64,000 nucleotides of DNA from Escherichia phage phiEco32. Below, in pieces: positions 953 through 61,883 of this stretch (positions are counted from its first letter, which is position 1; every line of letters begins with the position of its first letter). The position numbers and the translations under genes were made by a program. The notes beneath the pieces were generated by a model. That model saw only the letters and a list, made by a program, of their open reading frames with translations. It did not search any database and was not told the DNA's origin. The stretch lies in the sequence record NC_010324.1. The stretch is one strand, 5' to 3'.

Positions 953-1640
953 TCAAATAACCGCAGTGAATATGGAAGGTGTTTATGGAGGTAGCTTCCC
1001 TTCTGGCTCTCCTTTCCACACTAAAGCAATGGACCTTAATGATTATAATTCACAGCTGTGTCGTTCTGGTTGCAGCTTACAGCATTTAGAAACTATGGGA
1101 AATGTTTCAGGATTGGCTGTACAAGATTTATATAGTGGAAGTATTCTTAAACCAACTATTACGGAGAAGAAAGATATGATGAGTTTAGTAGAACAATACC
1201 GTGGACTTCAAGTCGATACTATTGGTGATAAATATGAGAACTACTACAAAGATCGCTCAAAAGTACTTGAAGAAGTTGCACGGGCTAAGCCTTCTACTCT
1301 GGAAGTAATTGAGTATGAATCTACTAAACATGATCACCTCCCTGAATATGCTCGTGCAATGATTGAGATGATTGAAGAAGCTGAATATGAAATGCTCCAT
1401 GATTACATTACCTCCAAAGATGAATGGCATCGTGATGTTCGAATCGAAGAAGATGGTACAGAAACTATTACGTGGATTCACAAGAGTGAGCTAGTAGACG
1501 ACGCACTGCGAGACTACGAAAAATTTTTGGTCGACGGCTCTATTCTTTTAGAGGAAGAGAAGGGTGCAGAACTTCCGTGGGAAGGTGAGACTATTGCTCT
1601 TGGTAAGATGTTTAACCTGTCCGTTGGTGATTGTAAGTAA
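945..1640 (+). CDS. acidic hypothetical protein (231 aa)
   Basis: ORF track; SD GGGAGAG upstream; 8-nt overlap with the preceding ORF. Confidence 0.6.
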   Translation: MNNQITAVNMEGVYGGSFPSGSPFHTKAMDLNDYNSQLCRSGCSLQHLETMGNVSGLAVQDLYSGSILKPTITEKKDMMSLVEQYRGLQVDTIGDKYENYYKDRSKVLEEVARAKPSTLEVIEYESTKHDHLPEYARAMIEMIEEAEYEMLHDYITSKDEWHRDVRIEEDGTETITWIHKSELVDDALRDYEKFLVDGSILLEEEKGAELPWEGETIALGKMFNLSVGDCK

Positions 1641-3842: not shown

Positions 3843-6086
3843 ATGGCTAAGCAAAAATATAGTGAAGAGGTGTTGGACGAGTTACGTGTTGACCTTCAAC
3901 GTCGTTTTAATTACGCTCAAGGTTACGTTGACATGGCTGTTAAGGGCTATGCTCGTGAAGCTTGGGAATATTTCTATGGTAACTTACCTGCACCAGTAAC
4001 TGCTGGCAGCTCTAGTTGGGTAGATCGTACTGTTTGGGAATCTGTTAACGGTACATTGCAAGATATTATTAACGTATTCTGTTCTGGTGATGAAGCAGTT
4101 ACTTTCGTAGCTGACAACCAACAGGACTCTGATGCTGCTGATGTAGCAACTAAACTAGTTAACCAAATTCTTCTGCGTGACAATCCGGGATACAATATTA
4201 TCTCTTCTGCTGCACAAGAATGTCTGGTTACTCGTAACTCTTTTATCAAATACTATTGGGATGAGCACACTTCTACTCAAACTGAAGAAGCTGAAGGTGT
4301 ACCACCGGAAGCATTGGCTGCATATGTTCAGGGATTAGAGGCTGGTGGACTCAAGAATCTGGAAATCTTCACTGAAGAAAACGAAGATGGTACAGTAGAT
4401 GTTAAAGTTACTTATGAACAAACTGTTAAACGTGTGAAAGTTGAATATGTTCCTTCAGAGCAAATCTTTGTTGACGAACATGCTACCTCTTTTGCAGATG
4501 CACAATACTTCTGTCATCGTGTACGTCGTTCTAAAGAAGATCTGGTTGCTATGGGCTTCCCTAAAGATGAGATTGAAGCATTCAACGACTGGACAGATAC
4601 GATGGATACTACTCAATCTACAGTTGCTTGGTCTCGTACTGACTGGCGTCAGGATATTGATGCTGATATTGGTACAGATACCGAAGACATTGCTTCTATG
4701 GTTTGGGTTTATGAGCACTATATTCGTACTGGTGTTCTAGATAAGAATAAAGAGTCTAAACTCTATCAGGTTATTCAAGCTGGTGAGCATATCCTTCACA
4801 CTGAAGAAGTAACTCACATTCCGTTTGTAACCTTCTGCCCGTATCCGATTCCGGGTTCCTTCTATGGTCAATCGGTCTATGACATTACGAAAGATATTCA
4901 AGATTTACGTACCGCGCTAGTTCGTGGTTATATTGATAACGTCAACAATGCTAACTATGGTCGATACAAAGCACTCGTTGGTGCATACGATCGTCGATCT
5001 CTGCTTGATAACCGTCCCGGTGGAGTGGTTGAAATGGAACGTCAGGACGCTATTGACCTGTTCCCATACCATAACCTACCTCAAGGTATTGACGGCCTCC
5101 TAGGCATGTCTGAGGAGCTTAAAGAGACACGTACAGGTGTAACTAAACTTGGCATGGGTATCAACCCTGATGTGTTTAAGAACGATAACGCTTATGCAAC
5201 CGTAGGCTTGATGATGAATGCTGCACAGAACCGTCTCCGTATGGTATGTCGTAACATTGCTCATAATGGTATGGTTGAATTGATGCGTGGTATTTACAGC
5301 CTTATCAGAGAGAATGGTGAAGTTCCTATTGAGGTACAAACCCCTCGTGGTATGGTTCAGGTAAATCCGAAACAATTGCCAGCTCGTCATAATCTTCAAG
5401 TTGTTGTAGCTATCTCTCCTAATGAGAAAGCAGAACGTGCACAGAAACTGATTAGCTTGAAACAGCTGATTGCAGCAGATGCACAGTTAGCACCTCTCTT
5501 CGGTTTGGAGCAAGACCGCTACATGACTGCACAGATCTTTGAGTTGATGGGTATTAAGGACACTCATAAATACCTTCTGCCTCTGGAACAGTATCAGCCT
5601 CCTGAGCCGTCTCCAATGGAAATCCTCCAGCTCGAGATGACTAAAGCACAGGTTGAGAACGTACAGGCTTCTTCTCAGAAGATGATTGCTGATGCATTCG
5701 ACCAACGTGAACGTACTACATTCGAACAGCAGAAAGCTGCGGATGAGCTAAGTCTGCGTCAGGAAGAGTTGCAGTTCAAGCAAGAAAATGCAGCAGATGC
5801 TATGACTCTGGAAAACCGTAAAGAGGATAACAATGCAACTCTGGAACAAGCTAAGCACAAGCTAGCTCTTATGCAACAGCAGGTCCGTCAGTATGAGTCT
5901 GTACTGAAAGAATTGCAGATGGTTATGGAGCATCAGGTAGACCAAGAGAAGATTGTTCAGCAATCTCGTGTTCAGGATAAAACTTTGGAACTCCAAAAGA
6001 AAGAAGCTAATGTAACTAAGAAAGAGCAACAAACTTCTCTCAAAGATTCACGGATTCCAGGCAAACGTCTTGGAAGTAAAAAGTAA
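3843..6086 (+). CDS. portal protein with long C-terminal coiled-coil / charged tail
   Basis: 747 aa directly after terL; SD GGGAGAG; C-terminal ~180 aa Q/E/K-rich heptad-like sequence. Confidence 0.75.
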   Translation: MAKQKYSEEVLDELRVDLQRRFNYAQGYVDMAVKGYAREAWEYFYGNLPAPVTAGSSSWVDRTVWESVNGTLQDIINVFCSGDEAVTFVADNQQDSDAADVATKLVNQILLRDNPGYNIISSAAQECLVTRNSFIKYYWDEHTSTQTEEAEGVPPEALAAYVQGLEAGGLKNLEIFTEENEDGTVDVKVTYEQTVKRVKVEYVPSEQIFVDEHATSFADAQYFCHRVRRSKEDLVAMGFPKDEIEAFNDWTDTMDTTQSTVAWSRTDWRQDIDADIGTDTEDIASMVWVYEHYIRTGVLDKNKESKLYQVIQAGEHILHTEEVTHIPFVTFCPYPIPGSFYGQSVYDITKDIQDLRTALVRGYIDNVNNANYGRYKALVGAYDRRSLLDNRPGGVVEMERQDAIDLFPYHNLPQGIDGLLGMSEELKETRTGVTKLGMGINPDVFKNDNAYATVGLMMNAAQNRLRMVCRNIAHNGMVELMRGIYSLIRENGEVPIEVQTPRGMVQVNPKQLPARHNLQVVVAISPNEKAERAQKLISLKQLIAADAQLAPLFGLEQDRYMTAQIFELMGIKDTHKYLLPLEQYQPPEPSPMEILQLEMTKAQVENVQASSQKMIADAFDQRERTTFEQQKAADELSLRQEELQFKQENAADAMTLENRKEDNNATLEQAKHKLALMQQQVRQYESVLKELQMVMEHQVDQEKIVQQSRVQDKTLELQKKEANVTKKEQQTSLKDSRIPGKRLGSKK

Positions 6087-6095
6087 GGACGTCGA

Positions 6096-6332
6096 ATGAA
6101 CATTAGGCATCAATTCAATAAAGAGCACGCCGCCGCTTTGGCGGCTCTCAATCTTAACGGCAGTCTTGACGCAGCATTAGAGGCATTGAAAGAAAGACTC
6201 ATGACAGAGATAGTTCAAACTGAACCTCATGAGAATAAGAAACGCGAAGATTGTTATCAAAAGTATAAAATGGTGGGTAGCTTAAAAGAGGTCATAAAAG
6301 CTGCTATCAATAGTGCAGGAGATGTTTCATAA
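6096..6332 (+). CDS. hypothetical protein (78 aa)
   Basis: ORF track; SD AAGGA upstream; between portal and scaffold. Confidence 0.45.
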   Translation: MNIRHQFNKEHAAALAALNLNGSLDAALEALKERLMTEIVQTEPHENKKREDCYQKYKMVGSLKEVIKAAINSAGDVS

Positions 6333-7417
6333 TGCCACAAGATAATTATATTGACCCGAATGATTTTAAATCTTTCCTCCAACTGGATGACCTGAAAGGT
6401 TCTTTCAAAGAAGAACTTGGTCGATTAGAATCTGAACAAGAACCAGAAGTGGACATTGACGATGAGTTCCCGGAAGATACCGGTGACAACTTCGACTTTG
6501 ATACCGACCTTCTCGGTGAAAGCGATGAGCTTAAGTTCGAAGATGAAGATGGTTGGGAAGATCATGATGAGGAAGGCGAAGTCGAAGAAGATGGGGATGA
6601 CTCTGATGAAGGTGATGAAAACACTGAAGCAGAAGAGGAAGACTCAAGCGATGCAGGATATGAAGATGATTCTGCTGACGGTGATGGTGAAGTCTTTGAT
6701 GTAGACTACGAAACCGTTATCACCCTTCCTGATGGACGTGAGATGACTATTGAAGAACTCTCCAATGGCTATCTTACTGGTGCTGACATGACTGAACGAG
6801 AGTCAACTCTTCAGCGTCACATGGAAGCATTTGAGGAACGTGTAGTAGGTTTGAAGGATGTATTAGAATTAGCGTCTTTAGAAGCAGACCGAGTAATTGA
6901 AGATTACAACGGATTTGATTGGGACAAGCTTGCAGTAGAAGATCCTCAAGCATATGTTGAAAACAAACGTTTCCTAGAGAAGTACACAGCTCGTCGTAAC
7001 CAGCTTGAACAGGCTCAGGTCCGTATTAAGCAGGAAGCAGCAGCTAAAGAGCAGGAAGCTTTCCAAGCCAAGAGTGTTGAATGTGTTAATATTCTGAAAC
7101 GTGAGATTCCAAATTGGGATGAAAACTTATATCAAAACTTAATGCAATACGCAATTGACTTAGGTGCTACTGAAGAAGAAGTATTGAAGGAAAACCGTCC
7201 GTCTATTTTCCTAGCTCTCCACAAAGCATACCAATTTGATAAAGGTAAGCAGCAGGTGATGGCTAAGATTAAACGTCCCGGTGCTCCACGCAAGGTTGTG
7301 AAGTCTGATGCTGCAAAGTCTCGTACTTCCAATAAGCCAGACAACGCTAAGGTTGCCAAGGCATTCGCAGAGGGTCGCGTTAGTCACGAAGACGCATTCA
7401 AATTCCTCGTAGATTAA
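6332..7417 (+). CDS. putative scaffolding protein
   Basis: Highly acidic N-terminal half, coiled-coil-like middle, located between portal and capsid; SD AGGAG. Confidence 0.6.
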   Translation: MPQDNYIDPNDFKSFLQLDDLKGSFKEELGRLESEQEPEVDIDDEFPEDTGDNFDFDTDLLGESDELKFEDEDGWEDHDEEGEVEEDGDDSDEGDENTEAEEEDSSDAGYEDDSADGDGEVFDVDYETVITLPDGREMTIEELSNGYLTGADMTERESTLQRHMEAFEERVVGLKDVLELASLEADRVIEDYNGFDWDKLAVEDPQAYVENKRFLEKYTARRNQLEQAQVRIKQEAAAKEQEAFQAKSVECVNILKREIPNWDENLYQNLMQYAIDLGATEEEVLKENRPSIFLALHKAYQFDKGKQQVMAKIKRPGAPRKVVKSDAAKSRTSNKPDNAKVAKAFAEGRVSHEDAFKFLVD

Positions 7418-30525: not shown

Positions 30526-30841
30526 CTAAGTTTTAAAAACCATCAAATTCGTCATACATCCCAATTCTCTTCAGAAGTCTGGATGTTCATCTTCAAAGCA
30601 TCCTGAGATGCCTCCATAGAACCAATCCGATTTACTTCCAAGGATAACAACTTCTTCATTCATATACCCTCCTAGATTGTGTTTATAAAATTAGTAAGTT
30701 TCTCTTCACTTTCATCAAAATCTTTTCCAGCTGCTTCCATCTCCCAAGTATCGGCATTGTCAATAAAGCTCTGAGCTTCTAATAGATCGTGGATTAAGTC
30801 GAAGAGTTTATTTTTATCTGCTTGTGTGATCATGTCAGTTC

Positions 30842-31466: not shown

Positions 31467-31902
31467 ACTCTCCGTGAAGCTTCTGTCTTTCTTCTCTAAG
31501 AGCTTCTGCGGCAGACTCCAGTGAGTCAAAAACTCCCAGTGAGTACCTCCTTTTATTAGCAGAAATTCTTGCTCTCCATTTACCATTAGGCTCTTGGGTT
31601 ATTCCTTTATATCCGGAAGTGTTATTGTTGTTAATTTTTCTATTGTAGGCATTTTCTAAAGGTGTTACTAGCCTGAGATTATCCCGTCTATTGTTTTGTC
31701 TATCGCAATCTATGTGATCTACAATCTTTCCAGAAATATCCAAACCTTCCATTAGAAAAACCAATCTATGCAACAGGTACTTCTTCCTGTCGATAAAAGC
31801 AAAAAGATACCCATCTCGGTCTACCTTAACTCTAAGTCCAGTAAATTCTCCTGTACTTGGGTCATACTCAAAAGAGCATCTAGTCTTCTCAGACTTCGCC
31901 AT
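31450..31902 (-). CDS. HNH homing endonuclease with AP2 DNA-binding domain
   Basis: GYLFAFIDRKKYLLHRLV...VDHIDCDRQNNRRDNLRLVTPLEN plus C-terminal GYKGITQEPNGKWRARISANKRRYSLGVFDSLESAAEA. Confidence 0.7.
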   Translation of the reverse strand: MAKSEKTRCSFEYDPSTGEFTGLRVKVDRDGYLFAFIDRKKYLLHRLVFLMEGLDISGKIVDHIDCDRQNNRRDNLRLVTPLENAYNRKINNNNTSGYKGITQEPNGKWRARISANKRRYSLGVFDSLESAAEALREERQKLHGEYANEG

Positions 31903-32081
31903 AATCAGCTTCTTCCCAAACTCGTTTGTTTACACGATGACTCACTTTACCCTCACGAGGAATACGACCAGTTCGCTGATCAAACAGTTGATGTTTAATC
32001 TTTTGGTCTTTACGAGATTCACGATTGGAGGAGTTTTCATCATATGAACGATAATCAAATTTACCCATTATAATATCCTTA

Positions 32082-36712: not shown

Positions 36713-36988
36713 TATTGTATAGCTGATAAAGTTATTGCAGGCTTGTATATTGGGCAATTCATAGAATCCCTTGCAAGTACCGAAGGGCAGGAGCCACCTG
36801 CGAGATAAAAATAGAGAATTAAGGAATCCTTGATTTAGGTTGTAGGGACTCCTAGGGACTTTGATTCTCTATTTAAAAGAATAATAATTACTTATTACCT
36901 AAATAATTAACTAACTTACTTAAACCAAATTCAATTAGAATAGATAAAAAGATTATTCCTAAGAAAGCTAAGAAGTAAATAATATAAG

Positions 36989-37288
36989 TTACCATTCAAG
37001 TAAACCTTTAAAGTTAGTTTGTTCTACTATCCTCTGATAACGAAGATTAGAATCAGCTTGTTTCTTTAACATCTCATTATATTGATCTCTGATAGAGTCT
37101 TTATAAACTACAGGTTCTTTAAATACTGAGATCTTCTTTTTCTCAGAGTTAGATAGTACATCCATCACAGGTAAGATCTCCGAGAAGGGACAGTGATAAC
37201 AAACGAGACTGCTCATCGCTATACAGTTGATCAATCTCTTCTTTAAGTTTTGCCAACTCAATGAAATTGATAAGTTGACCATGTTCAA
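36989..37288 (-). CDS. hypothetical protein (start probably an internal Met near 37165)
   Basis: ORF track; overlaps the upstream ORF in a different frame. Confidence 0.4.
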   Translation of the reverse strand: MNMVNLSISLSWQNLKKRLINCIAMSSLVCYHCPFSEILPVMDVLSNSEKKKISVFKEPVVYKDSIRDQYNEMLKKQADSNLRYQRIVEQTNFKGLLEW

Positions 37289-37364
37289 GACAGTCTGTTT
37301 TTAGTATAAATAAAACTTCAGCGTCTGTTGAATCTTCACTTGAATATTTATCAATGTATTCCAT
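37149..37364 (-). CDS. hypothetical acidic protein (71 aa)
   Basis: ORF track. Confidence 0.45.
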   Translation of the reverse strand: MEYIDKYSSEDSTDAEVLFILKTDCLEHGQLINFIELAKLKEEIDQLYSDEQSRLLSLSLLGDLTCDGCTI

Positions 37365-37379
37365 TTTTACTCCTATTAA

Positions 37380-37523
37380 TTATGACCAAGATTTAACTTT
37401 TACTTCGACGTATGTTTTAACTTCACCTTTCAAGACTTCCTGAGAAGCATTTGCACTTTCCTCAGAGTGATGTACAACGGTGATCTCTTTCTTTCCAATC
37501 TTATAAGTGTGAATCCAAATCAT
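37380..37523 (-). CDS. small hypothetical protein (47 aa)
   Basis: Not in the ORF track (<60 aa); ATG overlaps the upstream stop as ATGA; SD GAGGAAG 5 nt upstream. Confidence 0.4.
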   Translation of the reverse strand: MIWIHTYKIGKKEITVVHHSEESANASQEVLKGEVKTYVEVKVKSWS

Positions 37524-37720
37524 ACTTCTTCCTCATATTCCCAATTTCTTTCATAATACCCAGAGTTGTAGTTTAGGGCGCACTTCTCGGCCTCTTCTAT
37601 GTCGTCAGTGTTTAGGATATTTACCCATCCTCCAACTTCATCAAAACCTTCTTCTACTTCGTTAAACCATACACTATACTTTTTCATCGAGAAGTTCTTC
37701 CCCAATCTTTTACATAGCAT
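37520..37720 (-). CDS. hypothetical acidic protein (66 aa)
   Basis: ORF track. Confidence 0.45.
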   Translation of the reverse strand: MLCKRLGKNFSMKKYSVWFNEVEEGFDEVGGWVNILNTDDIEEAEKCALNYNSGYYERNWEYEEEV

Positions 37721-37856
37721 CGACCGTTAACCCACTTTGTCTCTGACTTAAATTCCTGAGACAATCTCACTTCACAGTCTTCTCTACTGGCATCTCCTCC
37801 GATATCAATCAGATACAGGAATAGAGCTATACCTAAAGCCCAAAGAATTATCTTCT

Positions 37857-38249
37857 TCATCGAATCACCAAAGGCTCTTCAGAGTACACAGGAGCGGCTA
37901 TTTCTACAGGAGGTGCTGCCCTAAGGTCATTAAGTCTTACGCCCTTCAGCATACCGTCTAGGTGGTCCTTTTTGGGGATTCCAACAGGGAAGTCGTCAAT
38001 CCAAATATCGACGAAGAAACCTAGCTGTCGACAGACCTCATCCTTCTGCACACCATTACAAAAGATAATAGGAATCTGCAAACACTCTGCATCAATCTTA
38101 ATGTCGTGATTATCGTACCCATTAGGCTCTGCAAAGCGATAAGTTACAAAGCGTACATCGTAGCCCTTTTCTTGCATTAATGCCACCACAGAGCGCCACA
38201 GCTTTTTATCTGAGGTGTAAGTGTCATCGTAATCTAAGCCAATATTCAT
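37857..38249 (-). CDS. HAD-superfamily phosphatase-like protein (possible nucleotidase)
   Basis: N-terminal GLDYDDTYT matches the HAD motif I DxDxT. Confidence 0.5.
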   Translation of the reverse strand: MNIGLDYDDTYTSDKKLWRSVVALMQEKGYDVRFVTYRFAEPNGYDNHDIKIDAECLQIPIIFCNGVQKDEVCRQLGFFVDIWIDDFPVGIPKKDHLDGMLKGVRLNDLRAAPPVEIAAPVYSEEPLVIR

Positions 38250-38383
38250 TCCCCTAGCTCCTCATGTTCGTGACCACAAATAGGGCATTTATATAAATGG
38301 ACAGGTGTTTCGAAGATCTCTGACCATTGCGTATCTATCCTTTTGGATACCGAGCCACATTTATCACATTCAGATTCTAACAT
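38246..38383 (-). CDS. small zinc-ribbon protein (45 aa)
   Basis: Not in the ORF track; CDKCG...CPICG two CxxC pairs; stop overlaps the downstream ATG (ATGA). Confidence 0.4.
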   Translation of the reverse strand: MLESECDKCGSVSKRIDTQWSEIFETPVHLYKCPICGHEHEELGE

Positions 38384-38400
38384 TTCTAAATCCTTTAGAC

Positions 38401-38425
38401 AAGAAAAGCCGCCCGAAGGCAGCTT
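38401..38425 (-). terminator. rho-independent terminator (minus strand): aagcugcc-uucg-ggcggcuu followed by U-run
   Basis: 8-bp stem (one G-U pair on the minus transcript), UUCG tetraloop, U-rich tail. Confidence 0.5.
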
Positions 38426-38430
38426 CTTAT

Positions 38431-38607
38431 TTAACCGTTCACTTTAGCTTCAAGTGTTTCATTTTCAATACTCAAGTCAATCACTACACCAGTAAGCTCA
38501 ACGACTGCTTGGCGAAGGGCATCTTTACCCATAGAGTGTACTTGAGATAAGAAGAAAGCTTTACCTTCTTCAGTGGATAGGGTTTCTTTTAATTCAGAAG
38601 CAGTCAT
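38431..38607 (-). CDS. small hypothetical protein (58 aa)
   Basis: Not in the ORF track; SD AAGGAA 6 nt upstream of ATG; followed by the terminator above. Confidence 0.45.
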   Translation of the reverse strand: MTASELKETLSTEEGKAFFLSQVHSMGKDALRQAVVELTGVVIDLSIENETLEAKVNG

Positions 38608-38616
38608 TGATATTCC

Positions 38617-38784
38617 TTATGTTATGTTATAAATTCGCATGATTGTACCACCATTGGCTTCAATAGCAGCAACCATTTGGTTTCGTTCTTCATCCGTGTA
38701 AACTAACACACTTCTAAACTCACCTGTTGCATCAGTATAAAGGATGTTATATTTTGGAGGCGGTTTACGGTAAATACCTTCCAT
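38617..38784 (-). CDS. hypothetical protein (55 aa from ATG)
   Basis: Track ORF starts at a GTG (38811); the internal ATG has SD GAGGAG 8 nt upstream. Confidence 0.45.
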   Translation of the reverse strand: MEGIYRKPPPKYNILYTDATGEFRSVLVYTDEERNQMVAAIEANGGTIMRIYNIT

Positions 38785-38967
38785 CACTCTTTCTCCTCTC
38801 GTTCTTTCCACAGTTCGGCTAGCTCTAGATAGAACTCAGCCTCATCAGGACGACCTTGTTCATTACAGATGGCGCTCTGACGATAACACCAATCCGATGG
38901 CATCTCTTCCACTTCAATCTCCTTGTTACGAACCAATCAATAAGAATAGTTCATTCGTCTTATTTAT

Positions 38968-39162
38968 TCACTCTACCAATGCAGGTACTTCTATCCTTTT
39001 AACTGTGAATGTCTTGTTTGGAAACTTTCGAACTAGCTCTGCTGCTTTGGTTATTGCTAAGTTCTCTGTCTCAAAGATACACAGTTGACCATTTAATGCT
39101 ACGAGAGTGGAGCCACCGCTGAAGACGGCCCAAGATTCATAATAACCACGAACACTCATCAC
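38968..39162 (-). CDS. hypothetical protein (64 aa)
   Basis: ORF track; start overlaps the upstream stop. Confidence 0.45.
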   Translation of the reverse strand: MMSVRGYYESWAVFSGGSTLVALNGQLCIFETENLAITKAAELVRKFPNKTFTVKRIEVPALVE

Positions 39163-39527
39163 TCAACCTCAATACTGTATAGAGTTTTCAGTGTATCTTT
39201 AATCCAAGCCCGTCGTTTTGGATTCTTATGATGTGCCCCGTTTTCCCTATCTCTAAAATATTGATCACATCCGAATGGGTATGTTGGGTCCAAAAACTTT
39301 TCTTGATTAAACATATTCTTCATGTCGTCAATATCTAAATGCTTTGTGAAATAGTAATACCTCTTATAACAGCGAAAGTTGAAGCATAATCCGTGATCTT
39401 CACTAAACCATTTTGGATAAATTCCAGTCTTAGTTATTTCATAATATTGGAGGAGGAAATCCTCCATCCCCCTCTCTTTAGCTAAACATCTCAATGTTCT
39501 GTAGATGATATTGGTTTCTTTCATCAC
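39159..39527 (-). CDS. hypothetical protein (122 aa)
   Basis: ORF track. Confidence 0.5.
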   Translation of the reverse strand: MMKETNIIYRTLRCLAKERGMEDFLLQYYEITKTGIYPKWFSEDHGLCFNFRCYKRYYYFTKHLDIDDMKNMFNQEKFLDPTYPFGCDQYFRDRENGAHHKNPKRRAWIKDTLKTLYSIEVE

Positions 39528-39532
39528 TCACC

Positions 39533-41377
39533 TTAGTGTGTATGCATCCAGTTAAGTCCAATCTGACAATCAGATGCCAGAGGACATTCCATGTTCAGAT
39601 ACTCGCCAGCTTTCTTAACACAAAGCTCAGTGTGCTCTTTGAGTTTCTGTACATCATTACGGTTTACTGAGAATTGACCTTCATCGTGCATATCAATTAC
39701 CTTAGCACAACGAACCTTATCTTTCTCAATCCACTTGTTAAGGAACATCATAGCATATTTCATAACAACAGCACCAGCACATTGCAGGAGTGTGTTAAGG
39801 GCTTTATGAACCATAACCTTACCAGTGGCATCCCGTCTCATTGTAATCTTACGACCATCAACTCCAATCAAGTATCCTTGAGCAGCTTTCTCTGTCATAC
39901 GATCGATGAGGATTGCAATACATGGGTTCTCTGCTAAGAAACGTGCTCGCATCACTGAACCTTCGTCAGCCCCACCACCTACAATTGAACCAAGCTTAGC
40001 ATCGCCAGCACCGTAGTTGAATGCATAGATAAATGTCTTAGCGTTGTCACGAGTAGGAAGACCAGCAAGTTTCTGGTTGTGGGAGTGGATATCACCTTCA
40101 AGGAGAATATCACGATACATAATAGCAGAAGCTAAACCACGTTCTGCCAGAGCTTTCTTAGCTGGGTTGTTCTCTTCAATTGCCTCAGCAAGCATATCCC
40201 TACACTCTTTAATGAGGTAGTGAGCGAGCATACGAAGTTCCAGTCCAGAACCATCATACCCTAAGAATACTTCTTTACCAGCGGGTATGTAATATTTGTA
40301 AGCGCCTACAGGTTTGTCTTTCTTCCCCGGCTTACCTTTCTCGTAAATTACGTTAGTACCTTTTCGTATATAACAACCATCAGGAACAACGTTAGTAATA
40401 ACGAAAGGACGAGAGTGATCACTGTCTGAGTTATAGTCAGACTCAAACAGACTGCGACACTCGTGACCAAACAAACCACGGGAGGGAATATTAACCACGA
40501 TACGATGTTTGAATCGAAAAGTTGGCGTAGCGCAGCTGTTAGCTTCTGCCGAAAGTTTACCATCTTCGCGTTCCTTTGCTATGAGTCCACTGATAAGACC
40601 TAGCCTGTGAGCCGCTACAACGCGTCTCTTAAGCAAACTTCCAACACTCCCTAGTTCACCCCCTAGCCCTTCTTCAAGAGTCTCCTCGAGGTTTGTAGGA
40701 GCTGTAGGCCACTTGTTTGATGTGGCTAATGCTTTCTTAATCTCATCAAACGTTACAGGATTACGGCGATTAGGGTTCAATCCCAAACCAAACACGTAAG
40801 CTTTCATGTAGTTCTTAGTTTTAAACCTGAAGTGCTTTTCTAAGAACTTCTTAATATCAGCGTCAACCATCTCGGCTGTCTGCTTTTGCTTAGCATTGCC
40901 TCGCATCCAAGCAGTATACCATGCTTGGTATGTTCCATACTTTCTCATATCTTTCTTAATTTCGAAAGTATTCCAAGGCTTCTTAGATACGTTAAACTCT
41001 GGAGGAAGAAAGCCCTCATCCATAAGAGCTTCTTTAACTCGTGCATCCTTCGATGGGTCAAAGTCTACATATTCGACACAGGTGAAAGCTCCACCAATGT
41101 CTTCTCTCTTCAGTCCAACCCTATCACAATAAGCTTGAGGCCACTTCTGCAAAGCCCCTGACTTCTTAAATGGCTTCATGTAAGTAGAGCCATCTAATCT
41201 CATCTTAGGTAAGAGAGGAATCAACTCTCTGTCAATATTAACAATAATCTCTTTAAGGAGGTGAACATACCACCGAGCATTTCTTCGGTTGAAACTCACT
41301 CCGTGCTTTGCTTGCTTAGAGATTATATCAGCGACAGTCATCTCTGTCAAAAATGGAAGAGCGTCCGGGTTGCTCAC
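39533..41377 (-). CDS. family A DNA polymerase, polymerase domain only
   Basis: Motif A LGYDGSGLELRMLAHY, motif B RDNAKTFIYAFNYGAG, motif C IDMHDEGQF; no 3'-5' exonuclease motifs in this ORF. Confidence 0.85.
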   Translation of the reverse strand: MSNPDALPFLTEMTVADIISKQAKHGVSFNRRNARWYVHLLKEIIVNIDRELIPLLPKMRLDGSTYMKPFKKSGALQKWPQAYCDRVGLKREDIGGAFTCVEYVDFDPSKDARVKEALMDEGFLPPEFNVSKKPWNTFEIKKDMRKYGTYQAWYTAWMRGNAKQKQTAEMVDADIKKFLEKHFRFKTKNYMKAYVFGLGLNPNRRNPVTFDEIKKALATSNKWPTAPTNLEETLEEGLGGELGSVGSLLKRRVVAAHRLGLISGLIAKEREDGKLSAEANSCATPTFRFKHRIVVNIPSRGLFGHECRSLFESDYNSDSDHSRPFVITNVVPDGCYIRKGTNVIYEKGKPGKKDKPVGAYKYYIPAGKEVFLGYDGSGLELRMLAHYLIKECRDMLAEAIEENNPAKKALAERGLASAIMYRDILLEGDIHSHNQKLAGLPTRDNAKTFIYAFNYGAGDAKLGSIVGGGADEGSVMRARFLAENPCIAILIDRMTEKAAQGYLIGVDGRKITMRRDATGKVMVHKALNTLLQCAGAVVMKYAMMFLNKWIEKDKVRCAKVIDMHDEGQFSVNRNDVQKLKEHTELCVKKAGEYLNMECPLASDCQIGLNWMHTH

Positions 41378-41393
41378 TTTATACTCCTTTAAA

Positions 41394-41807
41394 TTATTGG
41401 TAAAGTAAATCTGTAAATGCTTGGTTATCTTCTACTACATCCAAGGATGTGGAATCAACAGCATATGTTCTCATTGCTGCATTTGTTTGTGCCCAAGTAG
41501 GTGGAGAATAAGAAGACCTAACCTCACGAGGCTGCTCTCTGACTAGATGGGCCACAACTCTCTGATTAGCAACTTCTTCTCTTTCTCTAATAGCTCTCTG
41601 GATATAGGCCAGCTTCATGCCCCAAGCTTCTTCAAACTCTTGAGGATGCTTATCACTGATAACCACATACTGACGTTCAGGAATACCAGAGCGAATCTCT
41701 GATAATAATTCATGGAACAAATCTAGTTCATGTTCAGTGAGATTCATTTCAATATCATCCCACTTGAGAACTAAGAAACGGTTTTGGTGTCTAGCTGGTA
41801 ATGGCAT
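41394..41807 (-). CDS. hypothetical protein (137 aa)
   Basis: ORF track. Confidence 0.5.
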   Translation of the reverse strand: MPLPARHQNRFLVLKWDDIEMNLTEHELDLFHELLSEIRSGIPERQYVVISDKHPQEFEEAWGMKLAYIQRAIREREEVANQRVVAHLVREQPREVRSSYSPPTWAQTNAAMRTYAVDSTSLDVVEDNQAFTDLLYQ

Positions 41808-41808
41808 C

Positions 41809-41967
41809 CTACTCCACCTCTACTTCAATGTAAGTTCTCTCGCCAACATCGTCTTTTAAGACCCATGACTTGGCATCTTCTTCCGACTTAAAAGCTTTCA
41901 CAACGCTGTATCCGCCTTCCCATTCATCACCGAACCAGCGCTGTCCTACGTAAATGTATTCTTTCAT
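41809..41967 (-). CDS. small hypothetical protein (52 aa)
   Basis: Not in the ORF track; fills the gap between two track ORFs. Confidence 0.35.
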   Translation of the reverse strand: MKEYIYVGQRWFGDEWEGGYSVVKAFKSEEDAKSWVLKDDVGERTYIEVEVE

Positions 41968-41970
41968 CAC

Positions 41971-42255
41971 TCAACCTTTCGGGAATGGCATTAAAAACTC
42001 TACAGCAGATTTGATTTCGTTATTGATTCGTGAATCACGGTAAGAGATAAACTTACCTTTGCTGTCACGTAACATCACATGGGTTCTGGCTGTTTTGTGA
42101 GGAAGCAAAGTGATACTGGTTGGTATAGTATCAATTCCTACAGAGCATGAATTAATAGTCTTACTCTCTACTAGCAGATAAGACCAAGTACGCGGTTTCT
42201 GCTCCGGACGGTTGGGGTATGTGTCTCGAATCTGTACCATAGCTAACTTATTCAT
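41971..42255 (-). CDS. hypothetical protein, paralog B of a tandem pair (C-terminus ...PFPKG)
   Basis: Shares ...KTARTxxxLRxxxGKFISY...E..A.E.L.PFPKG with the adjacent gene. Confidence 0.5.
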   Translation of the reverse strand: MNKLAMVQIRDTYPNRPEQKPRTWSYLLVESKTINSCSVGIDTIPTSITLLPHKTARTHVMLRDSKGKFISYRDSRINNEIKSAVEFLMPFPKG

Positions 42256-42256
42256 A

Positions 42257-42514
42257 TTAAACTCCTTTAGGGAATGGGATGAGGTTTTCTACTGCAACAC
42301 GATATTCTTTCTCTACATCTTTATTCTTATAAGAAATGAATTTCCCATCAGCTCCACGGAGGATTATATTAGTACGAGCTGTTTTTGCATTATGACCAAT
42401 CTGGTTTGCAATTAGGCTGATGTTGTGTTTGACATCATGGTTATTAGTGAATTTCCACTTAGCCAGACGGTTAGTCCAAACATCGATGATAGTTACGGTT
42501 TTTACAATAGACAT
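42257..42514 (-). CDS. hypothetical protein, paralog A of a tandem pair
   Basis: See paralog B. Confidence 0.5.
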   Translation of the reverse strand: MSIVKTVTIIDVWTNRLAKWKFTNNHDVKHNISLIANQIGHNAKTARTNIILRGADGKFISYKNKDVEKEYRVAVENLIPFPKGV

Positions 42515-42547
42515 AGTTATTACCTAAGAAGTTTAATTTGGTTTATA

Positions 42548-42577
42548 TAAAAGAAAAGGCCACCCTATTGGGTAGCC
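42548..42577 (-). terminator. rho-independent terminator (minus strand) after the basic-protein gene
   Basis: Stem ggcuaccc/gggtggcc with 4-nt loop, followed by UUUUCUUUU on the minus transcript. Confidence 0.5.
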
Positions 42578-42582
42578 TCATG

Positions 42583-42900
42583 TTACGATGAGCTTAAAGC
42601 TCCTTTGCGTGCTCCAGCTGCTTTTCCAGCTCGATCACCACTTTTGCCGCCGTTTGAACGGTTTGAGCTGACTGACTCAACACGTAAGTTGCTTGACGCA
42701 TTAGAGCCTCCAGACTTGACAGCTCGTTTGTGTCCAACGTCTTTACCTCTGACAGCAGCTTTTCCATCGCGCTTTTCAACGATGCGACGTGCACGGTGGC
42801 GCTGAGCATCTCCGCTCTTGCTCCCAACGCCTGTTTCACCACGGGCAATTGCGGTACGTCTTTCTTGTGCATAATCCCTCTTTCCTACATGGTCTGCCAT
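42583..42900 (-). CDS. small highly basic Gly/Ser/Arg/Lys-rich low-complexity protein (105 aa)
   Basis: Strong SD AAGGAG 7 nt upstream; A/T-rich third codon positions like the rest of the phage, unlike the competing frames; own promoter motif and terminator. Confidence 0.5.
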   Translation of the reverse strand: MADHVGKRDYAQERRTAIARGETGVGSKSGDAQRHRARRIVEKRDGKAAVRGKDVGHKRAVKSGGSNASSNLRVESVSSNRSNGGKSGDRAGKAAGARKGALSSS

Positions 42901-42936
42901 TTAGAACTCCTTAATATATCAGTGTACACTAAGGAG

Positions 42937-42945
42937 TATACATTA
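42937..42945 (-). promoter_or_regulatory. TAATGTATA motif (minus orientation) upstream of the basic-protein gene
   Basis: Plus-strand tatacatta; 36 nt upstream of the ATG at 42900; followed by palindrome AGTGTACACT. Confidence 0.45.
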
Positions 42946-42954
42946 TGGATACTA

Positions 42955-43122
42955 TTAAAACTCTGCTAAGTATTTAATATCAGAGGCATATACCTCATCA
43001 AAGGAAATAGGCTCTCCGTTGTAGAGGAGTTCTATTTTCAGTATACCAGAGCATTTGGTGTCTTTGGAATCAACCCTGATAGAGAGTTTGTCAACTATCT
43101 GAGCTTTAATCTCTTCTATCAT
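42955..43122 (-). CDS. hypothetical protein (55 aa from internal ATG)
   Basis: Track ORF 42955..43293 overlaps the upstream gene; Met at 43122 has SD AAGAG. Confidence 0.35.
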   Translation of the reverse strand: MIEEIKAQIVDKLSIRVDSKDTKCSGILKIELLYNGEPISFDEVYASDIKYLAEF

Positions 43123-43135
43123 TAACTCTTGAATA

Positions 43136-43321
43136 TTACTCACTCCACCCTCCCGGTGGTACAAAATCATCATGAACGTCAATGATAGTAGGTTCTCCAT
43201 CATACATGCAGGTGTCTTCATTGAACTCTTCACACTCAAAACATGCTCGTTCGATATTTTTGTAGAAGTCAATGGTTGCTGAACCATCACCACAATCTCG
43301 AATAACTAAAGCGACTTTCAT
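43136..43321 (-). CDS. small Cys-rich acidic protein (61 aa)
   Basis: ORF track; CGDG...CFEC...C pattern. Confidence 0.45.
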   Translation of the reverse strand: MKVALVIRDCGDGSATIDFYKNIERACFECEEFNEDTCMYDGEPTIIDVHDDFVPPGGWSE

Positions 43322-44061
43322 TTATCTTGTTCCTTTTCCATAGCTTTAACAATAGCTTTACAGAAACCAGAACGAACAATGTCATCCGATTCGCCGTCTA
43401 CAATCTCAGCGAACTCATACAGATCATGTTCATCAATAAAGTTAGTAGCCCAAGTAAGACCACTCTCACGACCACGCATATCATGCTGGTTTGTATCACC
43501 CATACAGAACAATTGAGAGGTTTCTCCCAATCGAGTCATGATGGAGAAGGCTTCATCTTTAGTGGTGTTCTGGAACTCATCCACGATAACAATGGCATCA
43601 TTGAAGGAACGACCACGGAGATATTCCAGAGGTACGAATTCGATGTTACCGTTTCCGATTTGGCATTCATAGAACCCTTTACCATATCGCTGAGTAATAA
43701 CATCAATGATAGGCATCAGGTAAGGTTCAAACTTCTCGCGCATTCCTCCCGGAAGTAACCCAAGGGAATTGCCCATGCCAACCGAAGGGCGACTCAGAAT
43801 GATCTTCTGAATCTTACCGCTTTTCAGTGCATCAATAACTGTGGAAGTGATTACAAAGGTCTTACCACAGCCCGCAGGAGCGTCTGTGAACACAACTTGT
43901 TTAGTCTTAATAGCATTGAGTAGCTCAGACTGAAACTGGTTCTGAGGGACTACAGGCTTTGCTAAAACCACCTCTTCATACTCTCGCTTACCTTTACGAG
44001 TAACAAGTGCTTCCCGACGAAGGTCTTTCCGTGATTCTTTCCGTGATTGACGACGACTCAT
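43318..44061 (-). CDS. PhoH-like ATPase
   Basis: Walker A FTDAPAGCGKTF, Walker B IVIVDEFQN, PhoH-like C-terminal region. Confidence 0.8.
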   Translation of the reverse strand: MSRRQSRKESRKDLRREALVTRKGKREYEEVVLAKPVVPQNQFQSELLNAIKTKQVVFTDAPAGCGKTFVITSTVIDALKSGKIQKIILSRPSVGMGNSLGLLPGGMREKFEPYLMPIIDVITQRYGKGFYECQIGNGNIEFVPLEYLRGRSFNDAIVIVDEFQNTTKDEAFSIMTRLGETSQLFCMGDTNQHDMRGRESGLTWATNFIDEHDLYEFAEIVDGESDDIVRSGFCKAIVKAMEKEQDK

Positions 44062-44243
44062 TTACGCTCTCCAATTTCTTCGTAATGACACTCAGTAGTT
44101 AAGCAATCTTTACAGATTGCTGTATAAACCCTGACGTTAGTAAATCGTTTGTTCTTCCCTTTGGTTGGAGAGCCTTTAGCAAGCTCTCTGATAACCTTGT
44201 TACTTAAATGAAGGTTTGTTCCTTCACATCTAGAGCACTTCAT
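44058..44243 (-). CDS. small zinc-ribbon protein (61 aa)
   Basis: CSRC...CKDC pattern; ORF track. Confidence 0.45.
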   Translation of the reverse strand: MKCSRCEGTNLHLSNKVIRELAKGSPTKGKNKRFTNVRVYTAICKDCLTTECHYEEIGERK

Positions 44244-44559
44244 GGTTCATATCTTTATGAATCCTGTAAACAGCTGTCGCCATACAAGCAACAGCCTCAT
44301 TATGTGGGAGGTGCATTCCTGTAGAACCATCCCAATCTTTGAACTCAGCGTCAAAGACTCCGGTAGGCTCTGGATACAGAGCTTGCAGCTCCACTAGATC
44401 ATTAGCAACTTGTTGCCATTTATCATCAGACCAGATAGGGTCATCCAACCAGTAATACAAATAGGAATGGATGATCAATTGCCTTCTATGCCGATTGATT
44501 ACTTCAGCGGGACTTATCTCACTTCCATTTGAAGTCCTAAATGTATTACTGTCAATCAT
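44230..44559 (-). CDS. hypothetical protein (109 aa)
   Basis: ORF track. Confidence 0.45.
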   Translation of the reverse strand: MIDSNTFRTSNGSEISPAEVINRHRRQLIIHSYLYYWLDDPIWSDDKWQQVANDLVELQALYPEPTGVFDAEFKDWDGSTGMHLPHNEAVACMATAVYRIHKDMNHEVL

Positions 44560-44774
44560 TTCACAACCTTAAATTTGAATGTTGTTGGGTGATAATAGTG
44601 CAACCTGTTAATGGTGTGCTTTGTTTCAAGGTATATCCTGCAAGAGTGACACATGACATGAGTCAAACCGGTTACAGGATTAAACTTAAAGTTGGCGATA
44701 GGCTTCTCTTTCTTACAGAAGCTGCACACTTTATGTGTCATTAGTTCTCCAAAGTTTTCTTCAGAGCTGCCCAT
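44556..44774 (-). CDS. small Cys/His-rich protein (72 aa)
   Basis: CSFC...CHSC pattern; ORF track. Confidence 0.45.
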   Translation of the reverse strand: MGSSEENFGELMTHKVCSFCKKEKPIANFKFNPVTGLTHVMCHSCRIYLETKHTINRLHYYHPTTFKFKVVK

Positions 44775-45397
44775 GAGATTGGGTAGAGTTTAGCCATCTC
44801 TTCATCCAGAGATTTAGCAAACACTCGAACTTCGTATTGAGCGTGAGAGGAGAGTCGCTGACGACACAACTCAAACCAGCCATACAAAGAACCGGTCCAC
44901 ACCCACTCAGTGATCATCCCCTGAGGAAGAACAAATCGAGCTTGCTCTGGTGCAATAAACTCAATCAACTTGTCATATGCTGCTAGAGAAGCTTCATATG
45001 CATCGTTAATCAGTATTAATGCTTCAGCTCGCTCTCCGTCGATGAGTTGAATCCCTGAACCTGCATGGAGGTCCGAAGGTCTCGCAAAAATCTCTTTAGG
45101 GATGAAGACTTCAACTGCTCCATCTTTATACCGCCGGGACATTTCGTTCCACGAGAATCCAACCTGATGCTTGCCCAACTGTCTCGCAATTGCAATAGGT
45201 GCTTTGCATCGGAAACTGACTTGCGGGTGTCGGAATGGGGTAACATGCTTCTCTCTTGCGAGGAAGTTGATGAGACGTTCATCACGTTCATTTAAATCAC
45301 CTTCACGGGTTACGCCAAAGGAAACTCGAGCTGCGTTTACTACGCTACGATCGCTTCCCATAGCTTCGATTAATGTTGCTTGTAGTTGTTCATTCAT
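44741..45397 (-). CDS. thyX: flavin-dependent thymidylate synthase (ThyX)-like protein with divergent signature
   Basis: ThyX-like TPFRH...SFR...QLGKHQVGFSWNEMSRRY; the canonical RHR-x7-S motif reads KHQ here. Confidence 0.65.
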   Translation of the reverse strand: MNEQLQATLIEAMGSDRSVVNAARVSFGVTREGDLNERDERLINFLAREKHVTPFRHPQVSFRCKAPIAIARQLGKHQVGFSWNEMSRRYKDGAVEVFIPKEIFARPSDLHAGSGIQLIDGERAEALILINDAYEASLAAYDKLIEFIAPEQARFVLPQGMITEWVWTGSLYGWFELCRQRLSSHAQYEVRVFAKSLDEEMAKLYPISWAALKKTLEN

Positions 45398-45412
45398 CCG
45401 TGAATATCCTTA

Positions 45413-45688
45413 TTACTTATTGCTCAGGGCTGTGTCCAAAAATGCTTTCAGGTTTGCTTCAGTCTGCATACCAGAGAGGCTGTAGTGTGCACCACTGTTA
45501 CGGTCAGGCACAACGAAAGCAGGGATGCTTCGTACACCATACTTAACAGCTTGTTCACGACCATCACCTTCAAGGATGTTAATCTCTTCCACTTCTACAT
45601 CAAACTCCTTAACAACCTTCTCAAAGGTAGGAGCCATTGCTTTACATGGAGCACACTGATCACTATAAAACTTAATTACTTTAGACAT
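45413..45688 (-). CDS. thioredoxin-like protein (CAPC active site)
   Basis: YSDQCAPCKAMAPTFE matches the thioredoxin WCxPC...AP pattern; SD AAGGA. Confidence 0.75.
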   Translation of the reverse strand: MSKVIKFYSDQCAPCKAMAPTFEKVVKEFDVEVEEINILEGDGREQAVKYGVRSIPAFVVPDRNSGAHYSLSGMQTEANLKAFLDTALSNK

Positions 45689-45696
45689 GTAAATCC

Positions 45697-45876
45697 TTAT
45701 GCAGTCAGGAGGTGAAGCAGGAATGGGATAACAACAGCTACGATAACCATGATAGTTGATGCTGTTTGAATCTCACCTTTCTTATCAGGAGTTTCTTCGA
45801 TAAGCTTACCAGAAGCCCAATAAATACCGCCACCAATAAAGATAGCCCAAATACCCCATACGATTGCTGATAACAT
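45697..45876 (-). CDS. small two-TM membrane protein (59 aa)
   Basis: Not in the ORF track; MLSAIVWGIWAIFIGGGIYWA...TIMVIVAVVIPFLLHLL; SD AAGGA. Confidence 0.4.
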   Translation of the reverse strand: MLSAIVWGIWAIFIGGGIYWASGKLIEETPDKKGEIQTASTIMVIVAVVIPFLLHLLTA

Positions 45877-45936
45877 ATATCTATATCCTTATAAATAAGT
45901 TCGCCCCACCTCGGGTTAGGAGACAGGGCGGAGGTT

Positions 45937-46500
45937 TTAGTAAGACACGTCACCACTTGAATGGGACATGTTGCTCTTGACGAAGTAGCAATACTTGCCA
46001 AGACCTTCATTAATTTCTTGAAGCATACTCTGATCGACTGGGTAAGTGGCTAAATCACCATCAAACTCATCCATCTTCTCAATAATACACATCAAGGTCA
46101 TGCACATATCAGAGAGCATACCGTCCATGTCTAGATCAGCATTACCCTCTGAGAACCAAGCATGAGAGAGATAGTTAGCTGCTGTAGCATCCACTTTAAC
46201 GCAGTGGTAACGCATACGTTCAGCAATACGATCTCCTACCTGTCGTGCGTAATCTTCCAGCTCATCAAACATACCATGAACACCCTGAAATCCTGCACCA
46301 GAGACGTTCCAGTGGTAGTTTTTAGCTTTGATATGCAAGAGTTCCATGTTAGCTTGTAAGCAGCTCAGGATGTGTTCTAGGCTGTTTCCACTAATCATAC
46401 CCTGCATTGTTTCAAGGCGAGAGATTGATAGGTCGGACCGGTCTAACATGCTATAGCTGTCACGACCAATCTCAGGTAAATCAAAAACATTCTTATGCAT
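45937..46500 (-). CDS. Dps / ferritin-like protein
   Basis: NYHWNVSGAGFQGVHGMFDELEDYARQVGDRIAERM aligns with Dps ferroxidase-centre region (HWN, VH.M, D...E); start taken at the Met with SD GGAG (track start 46548 overlaps upstream gene). Confidence 0.65.
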   Translation of the reverse strand: MHKNVFDLPEIGRDSYSMLDRSDLSISRLETMQGMISGNSLEHILSCLQANMELLHIKAKNYHWNVSGAGFQGVHGMFDELEDYARQVGDRIAERMRYHCVKVDATAANYLSHAWFSEGNADLDMDGMLSDMCMTLMCIIEKMDEFDGDLATYPVDQSMLQEINEGLGKYCYFVKSNMSHSSGDVSY

Positions 46501-61858: not shown

Positions 61859-61883
61859 AAAAAAGGACTCTCCGAAAAGAGTC
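61859..61883 (-). terminator. rho-independent terminator (minus strand): gacucu-6nt loop-agaguc followed by UUUUUU
   Basis: Perfect 6-bp stem; A-run on the plus strand gives a U-run on the minus transcript. Confidence 0.45.

Follow-up and report, generated by a model that had tools for sequence, protein, structure and literature searches.

Six small genes on the minus strand

The stretch of DNA analysed here, called the window below, is 64,000 nucleotides (nt) of the Escherichia phage phiEco32 genome (NC_010324.1). An earlier note, made from its letters alone, had named six short open reading frames (ORFs) of the minus strand, lying in the gaps between longer ones, as plausible small genes. 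All six were found to be present; they are referred to as O1 to O6, with product lengths in amino acids (aa).

37380..37523, minus strand: O1, 47 aa
38246..38383, minus strand: O2, 45 aa
38431..38607, minus strand: O3, 58 aa
41809..41967, minus strand: O4, 52 aa
45697..45876, minus strand: O5, 59 aa
61687..61839, minus strand: O6, 50 aa

The good Shine-Dalgarno (SD) sequences and the coupling of starts to stops that had been described for these ORFs were both observed. An SD-like motif lies 3-9 nt 5' of each of the six starts (GAGGAAG for O1, AAGGA for O2, TAAGGA for O3 and O5, AAAGG for O4 and GAGAGGAAAT for O6), and the junctions with neighbouring genes are tight or overlapping. The start of O1 overlaps the stop of the upstream gene, and the stop of O2 overlaps the start of the downstream gene, in both cases as ATGA; the other junctions are gaps of 1-15 nt. 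O4 begins 3 nt past the upstream stop and is followed 1 nt on by the next ATG, the end of O5 is 8 nt from the ATG of a thioredoxin gene, and the end of O6 is 2 nt from the next ATG. The ORF tool runs O4 on to a GTG (41970), but in relatives the annotated start is the ATG at 41967.

Codon usage was scored as log-odds trained on the 35 long ORFs of the window, and the scores were ranked among 197 ORFs of 40-60 aa taken from its six frames. Five of the six ORFs fall in the top 13% of this set (O1 at the 96th percentile, O3 at the 98th, O4 at the 94th, O5 at the 99th and O6 at the 87th), and no ORF of at least 100 aa overlaps any of the six. It is therefore clear that the set exceeds what chance would produce.

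When positions 37300..46000 were compared with 50,697 phage records by megablast, 106 related records were obtained, nearly all of them from phages of Escherichia or Shigella that belong to the phiEco32/SU10 group (Kuravirus and its sister genera, in Gordonclarkvirinae). The closest were EK5 and CHD5UKE1, with ~96% identity over 97-98% of the query; by sequence similarity the window is that of a Kuravirus, a phiEco32/SU10-like coliphage. Searches of the phage collection with tblastn found O1 in 193 records, O3 in 97, O5 in 91, O6 in 73, O4 in 51 and O2 in 4.

Orthologs were then compared in a panel of 13 other phage genomes from three genera (Kuravirus, Nieuwekanaalvirus and Suseptimavirus); a scan of IMG/VR gave four Kuravirus-like loci only, and the panel comes mostly from GenBank records. 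In every ortholog found, the ATG and SD are kept and the frame is intact, down to ~50% identity for O1, O3 and O5 and to 35% for O6. The ratio of nonsynonymous to synonymous substitution rates (dN/dS), calculated by the Nei-Gojobori method (NG86) for each ortholog against the window, was 0.04-0.30 for O1, 0 for O2, 0.07-0.29 for O3, 0.17-0.26 for O4, 0-0.50 for O5 and 0.12-0.14 for O6. When these nucleotide differences are read in either of the alternative frames, most of them become nonsynonymous. Substitutions at codon positions 1/2/3 number 23/22/40 in O1, 1/0/10 in O2, 33/16/51 in O3 and 32/21/45 in O5. These patterns indicate that all six ORFs are under purifying selection. Conservation in related phages was the check that the earlier note had itself proposed, and it bears the prediction out: since the orthologs are intact with ATG and SD, since dN/dS stays at 0-0.5 and since the out-of-frame readings are mostly nonsynonymous, the six ORFs are very probably genuine small protein-coding genes.

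Most of these genes had not gone unnoticed. Relatives carry O1, O3, O4, O5 and O6 as annotated hypothetical proteins in GenBank and RefSeq, with O3-O6 at the same genomic positions as the annotated genes, EcoN5 gp45 being among these Kuravirus counterparts. O1 is 100% identical to phiEco32 gp44 (phi32_44) and corresponds to SU10 gp42; the SU10 counterparts of O3, O5 and O6 are gp46, gp66 and gp92. The same five match PHROG families, all of unknown function: O1 phrog_3955 and phrog_36005 (expect values, E, of 3e-20 and 4e-22), O3 phrog_12230 (E 3.5e-43), O4 phrog_17007 (E 9e-39), O5 phrog_9296 (E 3.6e-34) and O6 phrog_13048 (E 5.8e-40). These profiles are covered almost end to end, apart from phrog_36005, of which only positions 1-42 of 74 are covered. 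Compared with the annotated Kuravirus proteins and the PHROG families, these are the same genes and nothing substantive differs. Five of the six are thus not overlooked, and O2 alone tends to be missed; although correct, the finding is an ordinary one, and current views of phage genome organisation are not overturned by it. Its main use is in annotation quality, as a 60-aa ORF cutoff conceals ~800 nt of real coding sequence in a 9-kb stretch. Curated records also miss some of these genes: O2 has not been called in FH3 or in O18-011 (RefSeq), nor has an ortholog of O6 in the RefSeq record of SU7.

The O2 and O4 cassettes

Two features define the surroundings of O2.

38250..38387, minus strand: O2-carrying segment, 138 nt, represented by only 3 nt (GAC) in phages lacking O2
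38399..38430, minus strand: intrinsic-terminator hairpin between O3 and O2, AAGCTGCC-TTCG-GGCGGCTT followed by a U-rich tail, -17 kcal/mol

In phages lacking O2, the terminator is followed by a shared SD, TAAAGGATTT, then by GAC and by the ATG of a 130-aa gene. In the O2 carriers, the 138 nt take the place of GAC; O2 uses the resident SD TAAAGGATTT, and the 3' end of O2 gives the 130-aa gene a new SD, GAGGAGCTAGGGGA, together with the ATGA overlap. O4 was found in about half of the relatives. Its cassette is 160 nt long, immediately follows the ATG with which a 137-aa gene starts in phages lacking O4, and ends in its own GAGGTGGAG-TAG-G-ATG. Because the indel borders fall exactly at start codons, with a replacement SD and ATG, O2 and O4 are seamless presence/absence cassettes, placed within an operon at a resident start codon. 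By taking the resident SD and supplying the downstream gene with another SD and ATG, each newcomer would leave translation of the operon undisturbed. O2 and O4 resemble the small accessory genes in plastic early or middle regions of lytic phages (the T4 and T7 early genes, and “morons”) in being short, non-enzymatic, patchy in distribution, packed into operons and inserted at gene boundaries. Classical morons, however, carry their own promoter and terminator, whereas O2 and O4 have neither and, being inserted at a start codon, depend on the resident SD and translational coupling.

A zinc ribbon had been proposed for the O2 product, and this is supported by four cysteines spaced as in zinc ribbons (C6xxC9...C33xxC36) and by a confident AlphaFold2 (AF2) model made from the single sequence, with a predicted local distance difference test score (pLDDT) of 88.7. 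In the model, two CxxC knuckles flank a three-stranded beta-sheet, and the structural neighbours are zinc ribbons. On the strength of this model O2 appears to have a zinc-ribbon fold only, and is a member of no known family. It has a weak match to phrog_6422 (E 0.0037, residues 2-45). A Lar restriction-alleviation protein was considered and rejected, as the Pfam profile Lar_restr_allev (PF14354) scored 16.9 bits against a cut-off of 28.6 and the NCBIfam profile TIGR03655 14.9 against 39.6, both matches covering one CxxC knuckle only (residues 30-42 of O2). An NrdR assignment was also rejected: Zn_ribbon_NrdR (PF22811) scored 11.5 bits against 27.2, O2 with its 45 aa has no ATP-cone, and the likeness is structural only. 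The DNA-binding ribbon of NrdR is basic, and O2 is strongly acidic, with a net charge of -6. Thus, compared with the classical zinc ribbons (the NrdR N-terminal domain, the C-terminal ribbons of Rpb9 and TFIIS, and the Lar type), O2 is a stand-alone, strongly acidic protein of 45 aa whose profile matches are far below the cut-offs and whose homologs are limited to four Kuravirus genomes and two Kuravirus contig fragments.

Besides the window, the carriers of O2 are FH3, Ptacy1479 and O18-011. The protein is 100% identical in all of them and is annotated in Ptacy1479 only. The two metagenomic contigs with O2 are Kuravirus fragments with the same gene order. An exhaustive HMMER search of 1.84 billion representatives returned nothing new except spurious repetitive CxxC-rich proteins, and no donor of O2 was identified in either this search or the search of protein clusters referred to below. 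The identity of the proteins is not matched at the DNA level, where the four copies differ at 11 sites, every one of them synonymous (11/11); ten of the changes fall at the third position of a codon, and the remaining one exchanges the leucine codons CTA and TTA. Between pairs of copies, dS is as high as 0.46 with dN at 0. With a rough neutral expectation of ~19% synonymous changes (S=26, N=109 sites), the probability that all would be synonymous by chance is of the order of 1e-8.

O3 is the last gene before the hairpin at 38399..38430. A terminator after O3 had been claimed in the earlier note, and this was upheld: the hairpin folds at the free energy given above with its U-tail, the stem is near-invariant in 8 phages, with one compensatory change of G-C to A-U in SU7, and the SU7 record annotates a terminator at this position. 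A simple terminator scan had missed it; folding, conservation and the SU7 annotation supported it. The N-terminal ~50 aa of O3 are conserved and the C-terminal tail is variable, giving forms of 58, 65 and 80 aa, of which the longest has a tail that is coiled-coil-like by sequence. By its sequence, O3 is probably a helical protein whose tail varies and is coiled-coil-like. The O4 product, 52 aa long, is acidic and soluble; it is confined to Kuravirus, where it forms 4 clusters. The 55-aa gene beside O3 (38617..38784, minus strand) is SU10 gp47, a 6.3 kDa protein seen with 70.9% coverage in mass spectrometry (MS) (PMC4281155).

Gene class and possible roles

In phiEco32 and SU10 the late genes run rightward and are followed by leftward middle and early clusters (PMC8948821, PMC4281155). 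The sign of the GC skew of the window flips near 30 kb, in agreement with this layout. The SU10 classes are middle for coding sequences (CDS) 25-68 and early for CDS 69-125 (PMC4281155); because the SU10 homologues fall into these ranges, O1-O5 are assigned by homology to the middle class, and only O6 (SU10 gp92) to the early class. The earlier note had also held that these ORFs show an early region almost free of gaps. The near-full coding was confirmed, as the gaps between gene calls in 37149..46500 total ~360 nt by hand count, which is ~96% coding with the six ORFs counted; the region that holds O1-O5 is, however, middle and not early by SU10/phiEco32 homology. The larger gaps that are left in 37149..46500 contain terminators and an exact middle-promoter motif.

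42937..42945, minus strand: exact match to the phiEco32 gp36-sigma middle/late promoter element TAATGTATA (tAATGTAtA)

This element, whose consensus is taken from published work (PMC8948821, PMC4281155), lies upstream of the unit that holds O4, the DNA polymerase gene, O3, O2 and O1.

The six genes would be transcribed on polycistronic mRNAs, O1-O5 from leftward, dense middle units and O6 from an early unit, and would be translated by initiation at their own SD sequences together with coupling to neighbouring genes. Most likely, the products are small proteins with no recognisable enzymatic domain that bind partners from the host or the phage and act as dispensable accessory factors. O1-O4 may act as soluble factors in host takeover or anti-defence; envelope modification or superinfection exclusion may be the task of O5 and O6. 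Any specific function for the six is held with much less confidence than their status as genes. Small early and middle phage proteins are a source of many host-takeover and anti-defence functions, and for this reason the O1 mini-domain and the orphan O2 are reasonable candidates for functional screens.

Two transmembrane (TM) helices had been proposed for O5, and hydropathy shows two hydrophobic segments, at about residues 1-22 and 39-59. The length of 59 aa is shared by all orthologs down to 49% identity, as are both segments and the C-terminal VIPFLLHLLTA. O5 is accordingly predicted to be an inner-membrane hairpin with two TM helices. Its gene is directly upstream of that for thioredoxin. 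O6 has a hydrophobic N-terminal segment (residues 7-22 by hydropathy) that reads as a signal peptide or membrane anchor, and three conserved cysteines, at 16, 31 and 46. Hairpins lie 5' of both genes.

45902..45930, minus strand: terminator-like hairpin 5' of O5, 11 pairs with a weak T-run
61866..61883, minus strand: intrinsic terminator 5' of O6, GACTCT-TTTCG-GAGAGTC then T6; SU7 annotates the homologous terminator

O6 is the first ORF after the second of these. In SU7 (NC_070980.1, 29510..29677, minus strand) an unannotated positional ortholog of 55 aa, 35% identical (E 2e-10), lies between the annotated terminator and gp089; the terminator, the SD, the N-terminal hydrophobic segment, the three cysteines and a C-terminal C-x-KQE motif are all kept. 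These features fit a peptide that is signal-anchored or secreted and has a disulfide in the periplasm, and the C-terminal part with its two conserved cysteines is probably periplasmic. A bacterial lipoprotein was considered and rejected: the lipobox consensus at the end of the signal peptide is [LVI][ASTVI][GAS]C, and O6 reads VVIC in the window and IFIC in SU7, with Ile and not Gly, Ala or Ser at position -1. As middle or early products of less than 60 aa with TM or signal segments, O5 and O6 may be likened to superinfection-exclusion proteins (T4 Imm and Sp, T5 Llp). They have no sequence similarity to these, however, and O6 lacks the canonical lipobox; the likeness is one of analogy.

The core of O1 reads MIWIHTY..GK..vH.SEESA.A..VLGG.v.Y, and its AF2 model (pLDDT 90.5) consists of a beta-hairpin, a helix, a strand and a further helix. 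Two forms of the domain exist in the Kuravirus group, one of 47 aa and a longer one of 74 aa that is extended at its C-terminus. Homologs of ~50% identity are found in unrelated phages, among them members of Autographiviridae and Drexlerviridae; three examples are gene 2, located upstream of ocr in a T7-like Klebsiella phage, gp69 of the Drexlerviridae phage e4/1c, and Motto_79 of a Pseudomonas phage. The O1 mini-domain, soluble and of beta-beta-alpha-beta-alpha type, has been transferred horizontally between unrelated phages of enterobacteria and Pseudomonas. In e4/1c (1405..1635), the annotated gp69 has 76 aa and its O1-like domain starts at an internal Met, residue 33 (“MIWIHTY”). This Met is residue 1 in all other members; gp69 may have been annotated with a start that is too far 5', or it may be a fusion protein. 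Paralogy of O1 and O4 was considered and rejected (hhalign probability 3%, E 0.015; BLASTP 37% identity over 32 aa, with E 0.001 against no more than 10 sequences). A shared motif of beta-strand, “SEExA” helix and beta-strand in O1, O4, 37520..37720, 38617..38811 and 38968..39162 was likewise dropped, BLASTP being weak and hhalign giving 3%.

A more specific proposal for O1 is that it is an anti-defence protein which engages the C-terminal antitoxin region (a pseudo-zinc-finger) of CapRel-type fused toxin-antitoxin defence proteins, or mimics that region. This would be a functional refinement of the explanation given above and not an alternative to it. CapRel senses small non-essential phage proteins (PMC11578894), and the O1 family is present in the early-gene arrays of unrelated phages, as upstream of ocr in the Klebsiella phage. 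However, a Foldseek search of O1 against the PDB gave no significant match and did not recover CapRel, no sequence signal was found for O1 in PADLOC or among PDB sequences, and the known small trigger of CapRel, Gp54 of Bas11, folds differently, as an SH3-like barrel. The proposal is thus very unlikely. It is unlikely, though rather less so, that O2 is a lineage-restricted, recently acquired acidic zinc-ribbon protein that binds a specific host factor and neutralises it, for example a nucleic-acid-binding defence or regulatory protein, and that, separately, O1 targets a conserved host protein or a CapRel-like sensor. If this were true, O2 would found a new family, for anti-defence or host takeover, which mostly escapes gene callers.

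Several observations weigh against the reading of the six ORFs as genuine accessory genes. In SU10, MS of a virion preparation gave no peptides for gp42, gp46, gp66 or gp92 (PMC4281155). No above-threshold match was found for any of the six in Pfam, NCBIfam or PADLOC; accessory status is shown for O2 and O4 only. The case for O2 consists of 11 synonymous differences in four closely related copies together with a single-sequence AF2 model, its codon score is unremarkable (59th percentile of the 197 ORFs of the same size), and a word-indexed search of 5.8 billion protein clusters found no homologs beyond identical copies. The same MS study did detect gp47 (55 aa, adjoining O3), gp65 (the thioredoxin, adjoining O5) and gp91 (adjoining O6) (PMC4281155), which shows that the operons are expressed and that a 55-aa product can be detected.

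It might then be asked whether the non-coding spacers contain some of these ORFs, O2 in particular, only as chance or decaying frames, O2 being the untranslated remnant of a recent insertion. Its presence in only 4 of ~106 related records, its lack of homologs elsewhere, a codon usage that is average for random ORFs and the absence of an annotation in two of the three carrier records would all agree with this. The explanation is nevertheless extremely unlikely, as an untranslated frame does not sit well with synonymous change at all 11 variable sites and dS up to 0.46, with a conserved SD and an ATGA overlap that supplies SD and start context downstream, or with the cysteine spacing and the confident model; the other five ORFs are conserved across genera with low dN/dS. 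Alternatively, the segments could be mainly regulatory elements of RNA or DNA (terminators, promoters or small RNAs) in which the ORFs are incidental. O2, O5 and O6 do start just downstream of terminator-like hairpins, O3 ends just before one, and the leftover intergenic gaps do carry regulatory signals. The hairpins, however, fall outside the ORFs, and the third-position bias of the substitutions in O1, O2, O3 and O5 fits constraint on a protein and not on an RNA structure; furthermore, no Rfam family and no tRNA was found in the window. This is the least probable of the explanations considered, and small protein-coding genes remain the preferred one.

Neighbouring features

Further minus-strand ORFs of less than 60 aa were noted at 30672..30833, 31889..32068, 36888..36995, 37684..37860 and 38784..~38912. 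Four of the five have positive codon scores, 36888..36995 being below the size range that was scored, and an SD is present for three of these four. Several are already annotated in relatives. The ORF at 36888..36995 matches EP335 ORF37.1 and SU7 gp035, and that at 38784..~38912 corresponds to a 42-aa gene in a further contig (L023), with a product that matches DUF8272.

A perfect extended -10 sigma-70 consensus lies at 41322..41350 on the minus strand, with TTGACA, a 17-nt spacer ending in TGA, and TATAAT (12/12 matches). It overlaps the 5' end of the DNA polymerase ORF, for which GTG 41377 and ATG 41341 are candidate starts, and a transcript from this promoter would begin downstream of both. 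The motif is kept in five Kuravirus loci and is absent from the Nieuwekanaalvirus and Suseptimavirus loci.

The region 42500..45400 is strongly mosaic compared with relatives, which carry HNH homing endonuclease genes and other small ORFs where the window has none; EcoN5 5930..6424 and Bas89 6168..6662 are examples. In KBNP1711, SU7 and Bas89, endonuclease insertions split the DNA polymerase gene. Within the same region, two long minus-strand ORFs, 42583..42900 (105 aa) and 42594..42872 (92 aa), overlap in different frames of one segment, for which relatives annotate genes of differing size (SU10 gp55/gp56, CHD5UKE1 gp057).

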